Shown one piece after another: positions 1 through 20,543 of a stretch of 34,212 nt of DNA; the stretch's first letter is position 1; each line of letters opens with the position of its first letter. The notes under the pieces were generated by a model. That model was given only the letters and a program-made list of their open reading frames with translations, was not told the origin of the DNA and did not search any database. The stretch is from Patescibacteria group bacterium. GTDB taxonomy: Bacteria; Patescibacteriota; Patescibacteriia; Patescibacteriales; UBA12465. The DNA is taken from contig JAQUAK010000001.1 of NCBI GenBank assembly GCA_028687275.1, forward strand, positions 1 through 34,212, in the 5' to 3' direction. The translations under genes and the position numbers were made by a program.

Positions 1-27
1 CAAGAGTCCACATCGACGACCTGGTTC

Positions 28-60
<33 letters not shown>

Positions 61-70
61 GTGGAGAAGC

Positions 71-123
<53 letters not shown>

Positions 124-127
124 CCGT

Positions 128-825
128 TTAGCAGCTAATTATATTGGCTATTAAACACTCTGAATCCAGAGGCAAGACATCAAATACGGCGGCAATATCA
201 AGTAATTGATATTGGTATAAAAGCTGACTCATATCGATGAAGTCCTAACAGGTAATTGAAAATTAACCTGTCATATGTTAGGATAATATCGAGGGAAGTC
301 GCTTATGTTAAAATTAACGCAAACACAATTAGCTTACTTAGCAGGATTCATCGATGGCGATGGAAGTATTTATGTAAGACTGAAGCCGAACGATAGCTAT
401 CGTTATGGTTTTCAGATTGCTCCTTATATAGTTTTATTTCAATCAGCTAAAGATGAAATACATTTTCAAAAAATTTGTAAATTGTTAAGTTGTGGCTACT
501 TGCGCAGAAGAAAAGATGGGATATTAGAATATACTATCGGTCGCAGAGAAGAAATAGTGTCTTTAATTAAGGTAATTAAACCATATTTAATTCTTAAACG
601 ACGACAAGCGGATTTACTTGAAGAAATTTTTAGAAAGAAAGATTTGGTAAAAAGTGCCAAAGATTTCTCAAAATTAATGGATTTAGTAAATAAATTTGCA
701 GATATAAATTATTCTAAGAAACGCATCAAACATAAGTTGACCCCGTAGAGACTAAACGTCGGCCTCCTGAAAGCGTTTCAGGATGAAGGTATAGTCCGTG
801 CACTTAGTAATAAGTGAATAACATG
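128..825 (+). mobile_element. Group I intron in 23S rRNA at the I-CreI-type site (about E. coli position 2593), carrying a homing endonuclease ORF
   Basis: The 5' exon ends in T127 and the insert ends in G825 (omega-G rule). Group I core is present: P7 strands GTAGAGACTA (745-754) and GGTATAGTCC (788-797), P8 hairpin CCTGAAA-GCG-TTTCAGG (766-782), and a GTAA-capped hairpin CACTTA-GTAA-TAAGTG (801-816). Removing it restores a continuous conserved 23S sequence. Confidence 0.85.
305..748 (+). CDS. Single-motif LAGLIDADG homing endonuclease, I-CreI family (intron-encoded)
   Basis: LAYLAGFIDGDGSIYVRLKPNDSY aligns, from memory, with I-CreI LLYLAGFVDGDGSIIAQIKPNQSY. Also similar downstream: ...KPYLILKRRQADL vs ...QPFLKLKQKQANL. 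The size (147 aa) fits a homodimeric single-LAGLIDADG enzyme. The stop codon TAG (746-748) lies inside the intron P7 element. Confidence 0.9.
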   Translation: MLKLTQTQLAYLAGFIDGDGSIYVRLKPNDSYRYGFQIAPYIVLFQSAKDEIHFQKICKLLSCGYLRRRKDGILEYTIGRREEIVSLIKVIKPYLILKRRQADLLEEIFRKKDLVKSAKDFSKLMDLVNKFADINYSKKRIKHKLTP

Positions 826-968
826 CGTAAGACAGGTCGGTCTCCTATCCACTGTGGTCGCGGAAACTTGAAGAGGCCCTTCCTTAGTACGAGAGGACCG
901 GGAAGGACGAAGCTCTAGTGTACCTGCTGTTCTACCAAGGGCATTGCAGGGTAGCTACCTTCGGTTTA

Positions 969-999
<31 letters not shown>

Positions 1000-1242
1000 T
1001 GTCTCTAAGATTAGGTTTCACAGACTGGTTGAAGAATACAACCTTGATAGGCTGTACGTGTAAGTCCAGTAATGGATTGAGCGGAGCAGTACTAATAAGT
1101 CGTTAGATTTTCCCACACTTTTGTTTTTCAATACTTCGCCTTGGCTTTATACTAATTTATTGGTATATCGCTAGGAGAATTTGCATCGAAAAAACGTTTC
1201 TACTCTTAAGAGTTGTGAAACACAAATAAAAAGACACCATCG

Positions 1243-1485: not shown

Positions 1486-2892
1486 ATGACTTTAATTAAA
1501 TCAATTTCAGGTATTCGCGGTACTATTGGCGGCGGTGGGGATGATAATTTAACTCCTCCTAATTTAGTTACTTTTGTGTCTGCTTATGCTGAGCAAATAA
1601 AAGAAAAATTTGCTGAAATAAAAAATCCAAGCATTGTTCTGGGACGGGATGGTCGCATTAGCGGCGCCCCTGTTTATGATTTAGTTTCTGCAACTTTACG
1701 ATTGTTGGGCCTTAATGTTTTATCCTTGGATTTAGCCACCACGCCAACAGTTGAAATGAGTGTTATTAGAGAAAAGGCTCAAGGGGGCATCATTTTAAGT
1801 GCGTCTCACAACCCACGTCAATGGAATGCCTTAAAGTTGTTAAATGAGCAAGGAGAATTTTTAAATGCAGATGATGGGCAAGAGCTTTTAGCTAGGACTA
1901 AGACTGCTTCCTTTAATTACGCCGAAGTTGATAGTATTGGTGAACAAAAGATAATTAAGGATGCTCTAGAAGGTCATATACAGGCCATACTGGCCTTAAA
2001 ATTGGTTAAGGCGCCTGAGATTACTAAGGCCAACTTTAAAGTTGTAGTGGACGGAATTAATTCTGTTGGCGCCTTTGCTATTCCGGAATTATTGAAAGCT
2101 TTAGGTTTAAAGAATATTGAAGTAATTAATGCCGAGGTTAATGGTGAATTTAATCATAATCCTGAGCCTTTAGATAAACACCTAAATGAGATTAAAGAAC
2201 GCGTTAAAACAAGTAAGGCTGATTTGGGGATAGTGGTTGACCCTGACGTTGATCGCTTAGCTTTTATTGATGAAAATGGAGAGATGTTTGGCGAAGAATA
2301 TACTTTAGTGGCCGTGGCTGATTATGTAATGCACGATTCTTGTTCCTGTTATTATCAAAAAATTTCTGTTTCTAATTTATCTTCTTCACGAGCGCTTAAA
2401 GATATAACTGAAAAAAGAGGTGGCGCTTATTACGCTACCGCTGTGGGAGAAGTTAATGTAGTGACTAAAATGAAAGAGACGGGCGCTATTATTGGTGGCG
2501 AAGGTAATGGTGGAATTATTTTTCCCGAATTACACTATGGACGGGATGCTCTTGTGGGAACAGCTTTATTTTTAAGTGCTTTAGCTGATAATAAAATGAA
2601 AATGTCGGAATACAAAAAACAGTTTCCTCAGTATGAAATGGTTAAAGATCGAATAGATTTAGAGATTGGTACGGATGTGCCAGCGATTTTAGAAAAGGTA
2701 AAAACAAAATTTTCTGGTGAGAATATCACCGATATTGATGGTATAAAAATTGATTGGGAAGACTCCTGGGTGCACTTACGTGCCTCTAATACGGAGCCAA
2801 TCATTCGTATTTACGCAGAAGCTAAAACAATGAAGCAAGCAGAACTTAAGGTGAAGGAAGTAAAAGATATAATATTGGCTGATTTTAGTTAA
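1486..2892 (+). CDS. glmM: Phosphoglucosamine mutase / alpha-D-phosphohexomutase family
   Basis: Active-site loop SASHNP, metal loop VDPDVDR, and N-terminus MTLIKSISGIRGTIGG typical of the GlmM-like subgroup. Exact sugar specificity was not determinable. Confidence 0.8.
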   Translation: MTLIKSISGIRGTIGGGGDDNLTPPNLVTFVSAYAEQIKEKFAEIKNPSIVLGRDGRISGAPVYDLVSATLRLLGLNVLSLDLATTPTVEMSVIREKAQGGIILSASHNPRQWNALKLLNEQGEFLNADDGQELLARTKTASFNYAEVDSIGEQKIIKDALEGHIQAILALKLVKAPEITKANFKVVVDGINSVGAFAIPELLKALGLKNIEVINAEVNGEFNHNPEPLDKHLNEIKERVKTSKADLGIVVDPDVDRLAFIDENGEMFGEEYTLVAVADYVMHDSCSCYYQKISVSNLSSSRALKDITEKRGGAYYATAVGEVNVVTKMKETGAIIGGEGNGGIIFPELHYGRDALVGTALFLSALADNKMKMSEYKKQFPQYEMVKDRIDLEIGTDVPAILEKVKTKFSGENITDIDGIKIDWEDSWVHLRASNTEPIIRIYAEAKTMKQAELKVKEVKDIILADFS

Positions 2893-2993: not shown

Positions 2994-3737
2994 ATGAAGA
3001 CAAAAATAGTTATCCTAGCTGCTGGTAGAGGCACGCGTATGGGGTCAGAGTTGCCTAAAGTTCTGGTATTGTTAAAAGGTAAATCAATGATAAGTTGTTT
3101 GATGAAAGCGGTTTATGATTCAGGGGTTGATGATTGCCCAATAGTTGTTGTTTCGCCTGAGAATAAGAATCTTATTGAACAGGAGTTATCTGGTTATAAA
3201 GTTGTTTATGCGATTCAAGAAAAGCAGCTTGGCACTGGACATGCTGTTGGTTGCGCCCGTTCTTTAGTTGATGCCAGTTATGATAATGTTTTAGTTTTAT
3301 ATGGAGATCATCCATTTTTAACTTCTGAATCAATAAAATCTTTTGCTTTAAGTAAGCCAGAAGCGTTAACAATAATGCCAACGCTCTTACCTGACTTTAA
3401 AAACTGGCATCATAATTTTTTTCACTTAGGCAGGATTGCTAGAGATGATTCTGGGCGAGTTTCTGGAATTATTGAATTTAAAGATGCTAGTGACAAGGAC
3501 AAGGAAATACTAGAAATCAATATGGGCTTTATGTGTTTCAATCGTTCTTGGTTGTTTGATAATATCGATAATTTAAATTCAGAAAATAAAGCTAATGAAT
3601 TTTATTTAACAGATTTAGTGAAGATGGCGGCAACACAAAACAGGATCATAGACTCTATTATGGTCGGGCCGCGTGAATCTATGGGTATAAATAGTAAAGA
3701 AGAATTAGCTATCGCTGAGGAGTTAATGTTAAAATAA
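2994..3737 (+). CDS. Sugar-1-phosphate nucleotidyltransferase, GlmU N-terminal (uridylyltransferase) domain only
   Basis: GlmU-like motifs LAAGRGTRMGSELPKVL, QEKQLGTGHAV and LYGDHPFL. At 247 aa there is no left-handed beta-helix acetyltransferase domain. Confidence 0.75.
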   Translation: MKTKIVILAAGRGTRMGSELPKVLVLLKGKSMISCLMKAVYDSGVDDCPIVVVSPENKNLIEQELSGYKVVYAIQEKQLGTGHAVGCARSLVDASYDNVLVLYGDHPFLTSESIKSFALSKPEALTIMPTLLPDFKNWHHNFFHLGRIARDDSGRVSGIIEFKDASDKDKEILEINMGFMCFNRSWLFDNIDNLNSENKANEFYLTDLVKMAATQNRIIDSIMVGPRESMGINSKEELAIAEELMLK

Positions 3738-3770: not shown

Positions 3771-4244
3771 ATGTTCAAGATTATCTCACAGATTGTATTT
3801 TTAATTATTTTTTTATTCTTAACAATTTTTGTAACAGTTTGGTTTAATGACAGCGAAGAAGACGGGACAATGACAGATAATAAACAGTCGATTTCTTGGT
3901 TAAGTGAATCATTTAAAATTACGGGATCGGTTATTAGTGCGTTCTTGCCAAAGACAGAGACAAGCTCTAACCTTAAAAACAATGATAACATGCACGAAAT
4001 TGGAGAAGCTAACGACAGCTCTAGTTTCGCAACGGATATTCCAGGAATGTATAATAATATTAGTGGCTCTGCTTCAGAATACATTAATAATGAAAACGGT
4101 GAGGAAAATGAATTTCGCAGTTTTGTGGGTGATATTGTAGAAAAAGCCCCGGAGTATTATCTGGATGTGAAATTATACAATAATGCCTGGCAGAAATTCT
4201 GGTCTTTTTACTGGTTAAAATATAGTGAAACAATTTCGGAGTAA
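3771..4244 (+). CDS. Hypothetical membrane-anchored acidic protein
   Basis: ATG start. The N-terminal hydrophobic helix (IISQIVFLIIFLFLTIFVTVWF) is followed by an Asn/Ser/Glu-rich region. It is co-oriented with its neighbours. No family recognised. Confidence 0.45.
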   Translation: MFKIISQIVFLIIFLFLTIFVTVWFNDSEEDGTMTDNKQSISWLSESFKITGSVISAFLPKTETSSNLKNNDNMHEIGEANDSSSFATDIPGMYNNISGSASEYINNENGEENEFRSFVGDIVEKAPEYYLDVKLYNNAWQKFWSFYWLKYSETISE

Positions 4245-4416
4245 TAAAGAGTCACTATTATAAATCACTTAAGTATTGTATAATATCTAAGCTTGATAGA
4301 CACAGTTTAATTATTTTTTAGCTTTAAGTTAACCTAACTGTGCTACTTTAAAATTATTAATATTAATGTGCGCTGAGAAACGATTGATTCATATCTAACG
4401 TTTTAGCGATATATGT

Positions 4417-18068: not shown

Positions 18069-18455
18069 TTATTTTTTGGTGTCAGTTTCACTTGCGTCAA
18101 CCTCTAAAGTATCATCTTCATCTTCAGTCGCAACTACATATTTCTTTTCCTTGGCCTTTTCTTCATCTTCTTCGGCCTGTAGTTTCTGAGCGATTCTTAA
18201 TTTTAACTTGGTGGCTAATTCTTTAAACTGATCACTGTTTTCTTTTTGTAAATATTTGAGAAGCTTACGTCTTTCACTAACTTTCTTTAATAAACCGCGA
18301 CGTGAAGAGTAGTCATGCTTATGTTGTTTTAAATGCTCGGTTAATTCCTTAATTTCCTCAGTTAAAATAGCAATTTGAACCTGAGGAGAACCAGTATCGG
18401 TGTCGTGGACACGGTATTTTTTAATGATTTTTTCCTTTGTTTTTTTATCTAACAT
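18069..18455 (-). CDS. rpsO: 30S ribosomal protein S15 with an acidic C-terminal extension
   Basis: TGSPQVQIAILTEEIKELTEHLKQHKHDYSSRRGLLKKVSERRKLLKYL is canonical S15. About 40 extra Glu/Asp-rich residues follow. Confidence 0.9.
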   Translation of the reverse strand: MLDKKTKEKIIKKYRVHDTDTGSPQVQIAILTEEIKELTEHLKQHKHDYSSRRGLLKKVSERRKLLKYLQKENSDQFKELATKLKLRIAQKLQAEEDEEKAKEKKYVVATEDEDDTLEVDASETDTKK

Positions 18456-18519
18456 AGACTTATCGCTTTTTCCGAGAAAGGGGACTTACACCCGCCACCC
18501 AGAAGAAGTGCTGGTTAAT

Positions 18520-18780
18520 TTATTTAAGTGAATTAATTTTTTTAGCTAAACGAGATTTTTTACGATCAGCAGTTTGTTTCTTAATAACTCCCTTTTTAGC
18601 AGCCTTATCAACAGCTTTCATAATAGTTGCTAAATCATCTTTAACGCTTTTATCTTCAGCTACAATTTTTTTCAAGCTCTTCTTAACTGCAACTTTCATT
18701 GTATTTTTTACTTTGAGATTGGCAACTTCTCTCTTAACGCTTTTGCGTAATTCTTTCTTTGCCGATTTCTTGTTTGGCAT
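18520..18780 (-). CDS. rpsT: 30S ribosomal protein S20
   Basis: MPNKKSAKKELRKSVKR... is a lysine-rich helical protein with the S20 N-terminal signature. 86 aa. Confidence 0.88.
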   Translation of the reverse strand: MPNKKSAKKELRKSVKREVANLKVKNTMKVAVKKSLKKIVAEDKSVKDDLATIMKAVDKAAKKGVIKKQTADRKKSRLAKKINSLK

Positions 18781-18915
18781 ACTAGGTGATAAATTAGGTA
18801 ATTTTTTTAAAAGTATTCTTATGTTAGCACAAAACTAAATAAAAATCAAGGCTAGAGCCTCTCTAATGTTTAAAAAATTTTACTTTAAAATTAGTAAAAT
18901 TTTTATAAATTAATG

Positions 18916-18989
18916 TCGGGGTACTGGGACTTGAACCCAGAATCTCCTGCTCCCAAAGCAGGCGCCCTAGCCAATTAGGCCATACCCCG
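18916..18989 (-). tRNA. tRNA-Pro(UGG)
   Basis: Acceptor CGGGGTA/TACCCCG, anticodon arm CCTGC-TTTGGGA-GCAGG, T loop TTCAAGT. Confidence 0.9.
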
Positions 18990-19015
18990 TAATTTCCTTC
19001 ATCCTATTAGAAGTA

Positions 19016-19076
19016 AAAAGGCTATAAAGCTATAAATAAAATTTATTTAATCTTGCTTATAACTTTATAGCCTTTT
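19016..19076. repeat. 14-bp perfect inverted repeat with a 33-nt AT-rich loop, between tRNA-Phe and tRNA-Pro
   Basis: AAAAGGCTATAAAG (19016-19029) is the exact reverse complement of CTTTATAGCCTTTT (19063-19076). Confidence 0.8.
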
Positions 19077-19084
19077 ACTAATTG

Positions 19085-19406
19085 TGCCCCGGGTCAGAAT
19101 CGAACTGACGACACAAGGATTTTCCTTTATCTGAGCCTAGGTTTCCCTAGGGATTGGACTATATCATCTCCGTTCTATCACAAGAATAGAGGGCGGAGTC
19201 GGGCGCTCGCGGCGGGGTTATTGTTGGGCTCACCCGCTAGTCTCTACACCTTTTTCAATCTTAAACCCGATTGAAACTTGGCTCGGGATTGCCTTGGTAT
19301 TAGAATAATACTTTAGGTTTCCCCGAATTCACCCGATTTACATATCGATATTTCTATCGAACGGACCGAAAACCAGTCCTTTGCTCTACCACTGAGCTAC
19401 CGAGGC
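19085..19406 (-). tRNA. tRNA-Phe(GAA), split gene: exon 1 19406-19375, intron 19374-19125, exon 2 19124-19085
   Basis: Joined exons give GCCTCGG-TA-GCTC-AGTGGTA-GAGC-A-AAGGA-CTGAAAA-TCCTT-GTGTC-GTCAG-TTCGATT-CTGAC-CCGGGGC-A. This is near-colinear with E. coli tRNA-Phe (same GTGTC variable loop, A73). The acceptor and anticodon stems pair only across the insert. Confidence 0.85.
19125..19374 (-). mobile_element. Group I intron (IC3-like, ORF-less) in the anticodon loop of tRNA-Phe, between U33 and G34
   Basis: P1 pairs exon GGACU with intron GGUCC, with a U-G pair at the splice site. The terminal G is at 19125. P7 strands are GUAGAGACUAG / AUAUAGUCC. GAAA-capped hairpins are UCGAUA-GAAA-UAUCGA and CCUAGG-GAAA-CCUAGG. 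The blocks AAUUCGGGGAAACCUAAAG and GGCAAUCCCGAGCCAAGUUU resemble the Azoarcus tRNA-Ile intron (from memory). Confidence 0.85.
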
Positions 19407-19421
19407 CTGAATCTGAACTAG

Positions 19422-19494
19422 TTGCGGGAGTCGGATTCGAACCGACGACCTCCAGGTTATGGGCCTGGCGAGCTGCCAACTGCTCTATCCCGCT
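19422..19494 (-). tRNA. Initiator tRNA-fMet(CAU)
   Basis: Near-colinear with E. coli tRNA-fMet (GAGCAG..TGG.AGCTCG...CATAACC..AGGTCGTCGGTTCGAATCC...CCCGCAA). It has a 1:72 mismatch (A x A) and an A11:U24 pair. The anticodon loop reads CCCATAA. Confidence 0.85.
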
Positions 19495-19512
19495 ATATTT
19501 TAATTTTAAGAG

Positions 19513-19589
19513 TGGTGGGCAATGGAGGATTCGAACCTCCGACCTCAACATTATCAGTGTTGCGCTCTAACCAACTGAGCTAATTGCCC
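19513..19589 (-). tRNA. tRNA-Ile(GAU), CCA encoded
   Basis: Acceptor GGGCAAT/ATTGCCC, anticodon arm CAACA-CTGATAA-TGTTG, T loop TTCGAAT. Confidence 0.9.
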
Positions 19590-19814
19590 TTTATTTTAGG
19601 AAAACAACAATAAAAAATCAGTTTCTGGCAACTTATTGCTAAAATATAACAGAAGGAGAATAAAAAAGCAAGAGCTATTAAGTGATATATTGTTCAGTAA
19701 AATGTATATTAAATAAATATTGATTTAGAGGTTGTGTATTTATAAAATATTAAATGAATGAGAGCTTAAGTTTGCTTGGTTTATATAAGAGCAACAATTT
19801 TTTTATTAGATATG

Positions 19815-19862: not shown

Positions 19863-20543
19863 TTATTTCTTTACTCCCCACAAGGCATTATTTATCGGCT
19901 TAATATTTCTGTATAGAGAGATAAATTGAGGTGCGGCAATTTTTTCTAGGCGCTCACCGTAAAGAGAATTATTATCTTTTTTGATCACTCTGAAATACTT
20001 AATTTGTTCTGGATGAGGAATTATCTCTAGGTTGCTATCCACACGAGAAATAGCAGGTTTAGAATCATCTAAATTATCTAAACGAATGCCATAGAGCGTG
20101 CCATTTTTCTTTTTCATTACCTTAAAGTATTTTATTTGTTCTGGATGAGGAATTATTTCTAATTCTTTCTGCTCATTATTCAAATCAGCGCTTGTTATCT
20201 CACATTTCCCATCATGACTAACTCCTACTATCTGTGCTAAGCATTTATTGCTATATGTTTTTCCATCTTTACCACAAACTGGCATATATTCTCTAGTGCA
20301 AAGTAATGCTTTTTCGGTCTTACACTCGCCTTCATGAGAAATTTCTTTATTTCCAGCCATACAATTATTACCATAGGTAATGCCGTCAACACCACAAACT
20401 GGCATATATTCTAAGGTGCAAGCTCTACCGGCATCTAAGCTAGTAGTGATTACCGCTTCTTCTGCCTTAGTGGCAAAAGGGGCCATAATTATAATAGTTA
20501 GGGTTAAAACAAAAAGTGGAAGAAATTTTTTTAATTTTTGCAT
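19863..20543 (-). CDS. Secreted protein: signal peptide, two Kazal-type inhibitor-like domains, then three copies of a C-terminal repeat
   Basis: Signal peptide MQKLKKFLPLFVLTLTIIIMAPFATKA. Two copies of C-x7-C-G-x-D-G-x-T-Y-x-N-x-C-x12-C (CTLEYMPVCGVDGITYGNNC...C and CTREYMPVCGKDGKTYSNKC...C). Repeats are HPEQIKYFKVMKKKNGTLYGIRL, HPEQIKYFRVIKKDNNSLYGERL and APQFISLYRNIKPINNALWGVKK. Confidence 0.8.
   Translation of the reverse strand: MQKLKKFLPLFVLTLTIIIMAPFATKAEEAVITTSLDAGRACTLEYMPVCGVDGITYGNNCMAGNKEISHEGECKTEKALLCTREYMPVCGKDGKTYSNKCLAQIVGVSHDGKCEITSADLNNEQKELEIIPHPEQIKYFKVMKKKNGTLYGIRLDNLDDSKPAISRVDSNLEIIPHPEQIKYFRVIKKDNNSLYGERLEKIAAPQFISLYRNIKPINNALWGVKK

Follow-up and report, generated by a model that had tools for sequence, protein, structure and literature searches.

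A Phe.2Ug group I intron with an additional P7.1 hairpin splits a tRNA-Phe(GAA) gene of a Patescibacteria group bacterium

The window analysed here is a stretch of 34,212 nucleotides (nt) from contig JAQUAK010000001.1 of a Patescibacteria group bacterium, which belongs to the Candidate Phyla Radiation (CPR). It contains a cluster of tRNA-Ile, tRNA-Met and tRNA-Phe genes, presumably transcribed together from the minus strand, in a gene order shared with related loci: holA, tRNA-Ile, tRNA-Met, tRNA-Phe, tRNA-Pro, S20, S15, NYN and PNPase. The tRNA-Phe(GAA) gene of this cluster is interrupted between U33 and G34 by a group I intron. An earlier note, made from the sequence alone, had proposed exactly this arrangement, with an intron of 250 nt lacking an open reading frame (ORF), and the analysis described below bears it out. 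The split gene consists of the following parts:

19375-19406, minus strand: tRNA-Phe exon 1, tRNA nucleotides 1-33 (GCCUCGGUAGCUCAGUGGUAGAGCAAAGGACU), with the 3' end AAGGACU and U33 as the -1 nucleotide
19085-19124, minus strand: tRNA-Phe exon 2 (GAAAAUCCUUGUGUCGUCAGUUCGAUUCUGACCCGGGGCA), starting with G34 A35 A36 A37 A38 and ending with the discriminator A73; the CCA end is not encoded
19125-19374, minus strand: group I intron, 250 nt, ORF-less, with an IC3-like core and a P7.1 hairpin
19125, minus strand: omega-G, the final nucleotide of the intron, a G in 112 of 112 relatives

When the two exons are ligated, they form a 72-nt sequence that ARAGORN identifies as tRNA-Phe(GAA) with a regular cloverleaf. 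Applied to the genomic DNA in intron mode, the program reported a tRNA-Phe with the intron i(33,250), so that the boundaries were identical to the predicted ones. In default mode, it missed the tRNA-Phe and listed seven other tRNAs for the window. The Rfam model RF00028 (Intron_gpI) matched positions 19383-19135 on the minus strand over the full model (1-253), with 84.7 bits compared to a gathering threshold of 50 and an E-value of 2.2e-20. Both the intron-aware tRNA scan and the search with RF00028 had been suggested as checks, and both came out in favour of the proposal. The largest ORF within the intron comprises only 24 amino acids (aa). The labels that ARAGORN assigns in intron mode are unreliable, as many introns in tRNA-Leu(UAA) were labelled 'Phe' and the tRNA-Phe intron of the related locus L047 was labelled 'Ile'; host and insertion site were therefore re-derived from the sequences. 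That a group I intron resides in tRNA-Phe at U33/G34 is, in our view, very nearly certain. A gene of this kind is invisible to standard tRNA finders, and the genome would appear to be devoid of tRNA-Phe. The annotation problem of overlooked tRNA genes in CPR genomes has been pointed out before (PMC8172020; tRNAscan-SE 2.0, PMC8450103).

Syntenic relatives were fetched via the neighbouring PNPase gene and hence independently of the intron. Five of them carry an intron of 246-253 nt in tRNA-Phe (L242, L244, L245, L247 and L249). In two others, the tRNA-Phe in the corresponding syntenic position is uninterrupted, namely in L243 (positions 4202-4274; PNPase 91%) and L248 (positions 3154-3226; PNPase 78%). 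These intact genes scored 74.5 and 72.4 bits, respectively, with the tRNA model RF00005, and RF00028 found no match at either locus. A further relative, L246, was uninformative because its sequence does not reach the tRNA cluster. Between the intact tRNA-Phe of L243 and the ligated exons predicted for the window, 71 of 72 positions agree, and the alignment between the two loci breaks exactly at 19374/19124, within an unavoidable ambiguity of one G. Because G34 is needed in exon 2 and L243 displays the empty site, the intron extends from 19125 to 19374. In L124 and L242, the exons show 100% identity, but that of the adjoining spacers drops to about 45-54%; hence purifying selection acts on the split gene.

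The best named relatives of the PNPase are annotated as 'Patescibacteria group bacterium' (90-91% identity), and the contigs of syntenic relatives measure 959 kb and 977 kb (CP066698.1, whose PNPase is assigned by NCBI to Candidatus Falkowbacteria bacterium). It is therefore fair to speak of a reduced genome, as the earlier note had done. Neither the window nor 718 kb of sequence surrounding 116 related split genes contained a second tRNA-Phe. In intron-less relatives, the intact tRNA-Phe occupies the same locus, which favours this locus as the functional tRNA-Phe gene. The split gene may be the only tRNA-Phe of the cell, in which case a minimal genome could rely on RNA catalysis for a single-copy decoding tRNA.

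Related introns were collected in two scans. A genome scan with the core signature GAGCCAAG-N(10-40)-GGUGUAGAGACUA returned at least 120 loci (L001-L120). Among those listed, and after manual correction of the labels, at least seven are tRNA-Phe genes split at U33/G34: L039, L045 (Ryanbacteria), L047 (Saccharibacteria), L063 (Taylorbacteria), L068, L087 (Moraniibacteriota) and L113. A metagenome scan, with a pattern taken from exon 1 and the intron start only, also returned at least 120 loci and yielded, as a lower bound, more than 110 tRNA-Phe introns of this kind. From both scans together, 117 pre-tRNAs were parsed; their introns measure 205-451 nt, and 112 of the sequences are unique. Without exception, these 112 have a U just before the intron and a G as its last base.

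A helix model was written for the window intron and evaluated on a MAFFT alignment of 64 relatives, referred to as A2. It consists of the following elements:

19363-19379, minus strand: P1, exon GGACU (19375-19379) paired with GGUCC (19363-19367, intron nt 8-12), with U33.G at the 5' splice site
19368-19372, minus strand: P10 guide strand UUUUC (intron nt 3-7), the complement of GAAAA in exon 2 (19120-19124)
19345-19360, minus strand: P2 hairpin UCGAUA-GAAA-UAUCGA with the GNRA loop L2; compensatory changes in 6 of 6 pairs, 96% of cells paired
19330-19336, minus strand: 5' strand of P3, UCGGGUG, paired with CGCCCGA (19199-19205); 7 pairs, 100% paired, 3 of them with compensatory changes
19248-19326, minus strand: P4-P6 domain, with P4 UCGGGG/UCCCGA, J4/5 AAA, P5 and P5a, P6 GCC/GGU, and P6a UUUCAAUC/GAUUGAAA closed by the loop GGGUUUAA
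19238-19244, minus strand: 5' strand of P7, G(A)GACUA with a bulged A, paired with UAGUCC (19156-19161)
19168-19198, minus strand: P8/P8a hairpin CUCCG...CGGAG; 5 of 5 P8 pairs covary
19136-19151, minus strand: P9 hairpin CCUAGG-GAAA-CCUAGG with the L9 loop GAAA; all P9 pairs covary

In A2, 93.0% of the base-pair cells were paired, compared to 77% in shuffled alignments and 34-50% when the partners were slid against each other. Compensatory changes were found in 53 of the 76 pairs, and none of 500 shuffles reached any of these measures. Covariation was seen in P2, P3, P4 (99.7% paired), P6a (8 of 8 pairs), P8 and P9. The minimum free energy (MFE) fold of the window intron alone recovered P2, P3, P4, P5, P5a, P6, P6a, P8 and P9, as well as the P7.1 hairpin described below. 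P5 and P5a carry a receptor-like motif, CCUAAAG...CAAGG.

The splice-site helices were assessed in the 112 unique relatives. P1 always has a U.G pair at position -1 and a C-G pair at -2. All four Watson-Crick types are found at position -3, which is paired in every sequence, and position -4 is 99% paired. For P10, the guide UUUUC occurs with GAAAA (n = 68) and UCUUC with GAAGA (n = 44), with zero exceptions; the pattern used in the metagenome search had left exon 2 unconstrained. Read as one stretch, intron nt 3-12 form the guide UUUUCGGUCC, the complement of the ligated junction GGACU/GAAAA. The guanosine-binding pocket of group I introns lies in P7, and the P7 motifs GAGACUA and AUAGUCC are each present in 111 of 112 sequences.

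The intron hence combines an RF00028 score above threshold with the U.G pair in P1, omega-G and P10, and a core of P3-P8 and P4-P6 with the P3/P7 pseudoknot, as expected of a group I intron. The core is of the IC3 type, with a compact periphery (P2, P5, P6a, P8 and P9, with neither P5abc nor P2.1). Several details of this fold had been anticipated in the earlier note. Its P1, formed by exon GGACU and intron nt 8-12 with the U.G at the splice site, its omega-G at 19125 and its two GAAA-capped hairpins, which are P2 and P9, all reappear in the model. P7 is present as well, though its strands are more exactly G(A)GACUA and UAGUCC and thus slightly offset from the strings given there.

In the interval between P7 and P3', the intron contains an additional element:

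19212-19237, minus strand: P7.1 extra hairpin, with the stem GCGGG/CCCGC and the 16-nt loop UGAGCCCAACAAUAAC
19266-19268, minus strand: GGG in L6a, the proposed kissing partner of CCC in the P7.1 loop (19226-19228)

The 5-bp stem of P7.1 is 99.7% paired in A2, with compensatory changes in 4 of 5 pairs. Of the 112 unique relatives, which were chosen independently of it, 67 carry the loop motif, and among the genome matches listed the motif is confined to tRNA-Phe introns. The tRNA-Phe introns of L063 and L068 apparently have two small hairpins in place of P7.1. In the scheme of Michel and Westhof from 1990, P7.1 and P7.2 are said to be a hallmark of IA introns, and IC3 introns are said to lack helices between P7 and P3'. 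With P7.1 at 19212-19237, the window intron does have a helix there, and it is therefore called an IC3-like core plus P7.1 rather than a textbook IC3 intron. The IC3 label given previously is right for the Azoarcus-like core but does not cover the overall fold; the extra hairpin had been overlooked.

The P7.1 loop probably forms a kissing contact with L6a. GGG in L6a and CCC in the P7.1 loop occur together in 60 of the 64 relatives, and the four variants match each other as well: GGCA/UGCC, GGUA/UACC, GGCG/CGCC and GGGA/UUCC, which amount to three compensatory changes and one wobble-compatible change. These combinations were read from a column-based table outside the pair count, and the MAFFT register in L6a slips by one column. 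In a literature search on P7.1 and P6a contacts, with subscription journals outside its coverage, we found no description of an L6a-L7.1 contact. A compact Azoarcus-like ribozyme of 250 nt with a covariation-backed P7.1 and a likely L6a-L7.1 contact could be of interest to ribozyme researchers.

The intron falls into a class that has already been catalogued. Williams (bioRxiv 2020, doi 10.1101/2020.01.27.920355) extended the four classical classes of tRNA introns, Leu.3Ug, Arg.5Ug, fMet.2Ug and Ile2.5Ug, all four of them IC3, to 21. One entry in the seed alignment of that preprint, Mba55.Phe.2Ug, is a tRNA-Phe intron inserted at loop position 2 (U33/G34) that likewise carries this P7.1. Lui et al. 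likewise reported that tRNAs of CPR bacteria carry group I introns (PMC8172020). The window intron agrees with Mba55.Phe.2Ug in the host Phe(GAA), the U33/G34 site, the U at -1, omega-G and the core. Common to both is also the additional hairpin that follows GAGACUA and has the loop UGAG(U)CCCAACAAUAAU, and the two introns are 74% identical over the aligned columns, P7.1 loop included. Mba55.Phe.2Ug differs in lineage and sequence, has a different P10 (UCUUU/GAAGA) and lacks the P9 GAAA hairpin of the window. Host, site, U at -1, G at omega and homology to the seed all place the window intron in Phe.2Ug, and judged by these features it is a further member of this class. Phe.2Ug and fMet.2Ug have both been catalogued, so neither the host tRNA nor the 33/34 site is new; the earlier note had known of neither, although the classical fMet intron occupies the same position. 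Apart from the Williams preprint, a literature search on tRNA-Phe and group I introns returned nothing (subscription journals were outside its coverage), and the preprint itself catalogues the class and reports no biochemical characterisation of it. With the introns found in the two scans, the Phe.2Ug class is abundant in public data.

Comparison with other introns places the fold more precisely. Like the window intron, the IC3 intron of the Azoarcus pre-tRNA-Ile(CAU) is compact and ORF-less, lies in the anticodon loop and has GAAA loops on P2 and P9. The two are 64% identical over the aligned columns, and the blocks that the earlier note had likened to Azoarcus match the sequence printed in the Williams supplement, which served as the Azoarcus reference, at 16/19, 17/20 and 16/16 positions. 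The Azoarcus intron, however, resides in tRNA-Ile2 after position 36 (Ile2.5Ug), measures 205 nt and has no P7.1. P5 and P6a differ, and its 11-nt receptor CCUAAG...UAUGG is replaced in the window by the variant CCUAAAG...CAAGG. The cyanobacterial tRNA-fMet(CAU) intron (fMet.2Ug) shares the insertion between U33 and nucleotide 34, as read directly in L081 and L102 (...GGCU/C...AAAG/CAUAA, with slashes at the splice sites), but differs in the host tRNA, and the P7.1 loop motif was not seen in the copies read. A title in the references of PMC3984707 indicates that a homing endonuclease is encoded in some fMet.2Ug copies. The introns of tRNA-Leu, by far the commonest among the genome matches listed, have an IC3-type core with the same GAGCCAAG...GGUGUAGAGACUA signature. 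In contrast to the window intron, they are inserted at 34/35 in tRNA-Leu, and the P7.1 motif was found in none of the tRNA-Leu loci of L001-L120. Additional helices between P7 and P3' (P7.1/P7.2) also occur in IA-type and tmRNA group I introns (as in the tmRNA rows of the Williams alignment), whereas in the window intron one hairpin, whose loop is large and conserved, is added to an otherwise IC3-like core.

From these features, the following course of splicing can be proposed. After transcription, the intron would fold into an Azoarcus-like core with P3-P8, P4-P6 and the P7 pseudoknot. This core would be stabilised by two GNRA loops, L2 and L9, as well as by the P7.1 hairpin, whose loop is probably paired with L6a. 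The guide would align the exons, with GGUCC pairing with GGACU of exon 1 in P1 and UUUUC with GAAAA of exon 2 in P10. A free guanosine bound in P7 would attack after U33. Omega-G (19125) would then occupy the pocket in its stead. In the second step, the 3'-OH of U33 would attack after omega-G, so that U33 and G34 become ligated and the intron is released. The spliced junction expected from the exons is ...AAGGACU/GAAAAUCCUU....

The group I identity of the intron, its exact boundaries and, by covariation, its helices are demonstrated by the data above, and both the chemistry of splicing and its occurrence in vivo can be predicted from them. We consider the whole to be best explained as a tRNA-Phe(GAA) gene of Patescibacteria (CPR) that carries, between U33 and G34, a Phe.2Ug group I intron expected to be a working, self-splicing one, and we assign this reading a probability of roughly 0.88. 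Several points weigh against it. P1 can form only if three base pairs of the anticodon stem open. Folded alone, the intron has a modest MFE z-score (-1.76). P7 is invariant and therefore backed by conservation, not by covariation, and A2 is limited to carriers of the P7.1 loop motif, so that the invariance of this loop within A2 is by construction. A second intact tRNA-Phe is possible beyond the window in the 593-kb source contig. Finally, we found no transcript or splicing data for Phe.2Ug introns in the literature, and self-splicing is thus read from sequence.

Some of these points would also fit other explanations. The competition of P1 with three anticodon-stem pairs would suit a genuine group I intron that depends on host proteins, such as a chaperone or a maturase-like factor, for opening the anticodon stem or stabilising the fold. 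Protein-assisted splicing of group I introns is well established in other systems. However, the intron encodes no maturase, structural relatives of the Azoarcus type self-splice efficiently in vitro (see also PMC4333387), and the P7.1/L6a and L2/L9 contacts look like stabilisation by RNA only. We regard such a dependence as improbable, while some help from proteins in folding could be needed in view of the conflict between P1 and the anticodon stem. A decaying relic is a still poorer candidate. It would combine an intron that no longer splices with a tRNA-Phe pseudogene, and an intact copy elsewhere would do the decoding. For this it can be said that only the window and the flanks of related loci were scanned for such a copy, and that the close relatives L243 and L248 live without the intron. 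Yet the exons have stayed 100% conserved next to spacers of about 45-54% identity, the core motifs are intact, P1 and P10 covary across 112 relatives and the helices across 64, the 718 kb flanking related loci hold no second tRNA-Phe, and the intron-less relatives keep an intact tRNA-Phe at this very locus. This makes a relic highly improbable. A chimeric assembly, in which a false join put an intron-like fragment into a tRNA gene, had been named as a possible refutation of the earlier proposal and can hardly be credited. Introns at the same position and in the same gene order occur in at least six independent assemblies (L124, L242, L244, L245, L247 and L249), the guide is complementary to both exons, which is unexpected from a random join, and the clean empty site in L243 rules such a join out. 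No support for an artefact was found; the one other public contig with the exact PNPase of the window, an 8-kb Logan contig (L121), stops before reaching the tRNA cluster.

The history of the intron differs from that of its surroundings. Over positions 18400-19672 of the window, the flanks in L242 are 84-98% identical to the window, compared to 45-91% in L124. The proteins show the same ranking (PNPase, 92% in L242 and 76% in L124; holA, 88% and 53%). For the intron, the order is reversed, with 93.6% identity in L124 and 82.9% in L242. Taken with the two empty sites, this reversal speaks for exchange or replacement limited to the tRNA-Phe gene and for precise loss of the intron. The data thus suggest that the intron moves or is lost between lineages with no endonuclease gene of its own. 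Indeed, the window intron encodes no LAGLIDADG, GIY-YIG, HNH or similar homing endonuclease, and an endonuclease-sized ORF was absent from all 116 related Phe introns (up to 451 nt). Exchange may have occurred by recombination through the identical exons, by reverse splicing or with an endonuclease acting in trans. The variation between filled and empty sites among close relatives and the discord between intron and flanks could be of interest to researchers working on mobile elements. A more far-reaching idea would be that these introns form a CPR-specific, IC3-like subclass of tRNA-Phe introns with P7.1-L6a kissing, which spreads laterally and is lost precisely without an endonuclease, resides in the sole tRNA-Phe of genomes of about 1 Mb and makes all decoding of Phe codons ribozyme-dependent. 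We put this forward tentatively and would not bet on it in its entirety.

Some further observations concern the related introns. Nine metagenome contigs terminate inside or just past the intron start (L177, L206, L209, L211, L212, L218, L235, L236 and L238). Assemblies may break at the tRNA-Phe intron, perhaps because strains with and without it coexist. The tenth unparsed metagenome locus, L229, is not a tRNA-Phe. Locus L039 (CAZSCV010000004.1) comes from a metagenome-assembled genome labelled Bdellovibrionales, yet its tRNA-Phe intron is of the CPR type. Its exon 1 and P1 are the same as those of the window, and its tRNA order, Leu-Val-Phe-Met-Gly, is also found in L087 from Moraniibacteriota. 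Mis-binning may account for the label. On a contig binned as a Methanosarcinaceae archaeon, L049 contains a group I intron (positions 1549-1783, minus strand; RF00028, 74.9 bits) that apparently lies outside any tRNA and likewise has, after GAGACUA, a hairpin that ends in AAUAA. This contig may be mis-binned or phage-derived. In intron mode, ARAGORN also reported candidate IC3-like introns in Thr(UGU), Asn(GUU) and Asp(GUC) tRNAs of CPR bacteria, e.g., in L029, L034, L065, L058 and L064, under labels that are unreliable.

Other observations concern the neighbourhood in the window. Between tRNA-Phe and tRNA-Pro lies a long AT-rich palindrome (19010-19075; AAAAGGCUAUAAAG...CUUUAUAGCCUUUUU), which L242 retains as a palindrome. 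It may be a terminator or a processing hairpin and went unmarked in a simple terminator scan. On the minus strand, the space separating holA from the tRNA cluster contains a gene (19863-20543) for a 226-aa protein with two Kazal-type serine-protease-inhibitor domains. The corresponding gap is free of genes in L242 and L243, and the Kazal-domain gene looks like a lineage-specific insertion. The 3' part of a 23S rRNA gene (window positions 1-1116) contains an insertion of 702 nt at about 129-830. Its ORF at 305-748 encodes a LAGLIDADG endonuclease (Pfam E-value 1.8e-14), and RF00028 gave a sub-threshold match at 678-817 (30.5 bits, E-value 1.3e-5). This insertion is a second group I intron in the window, and one that bears an endonuclease.

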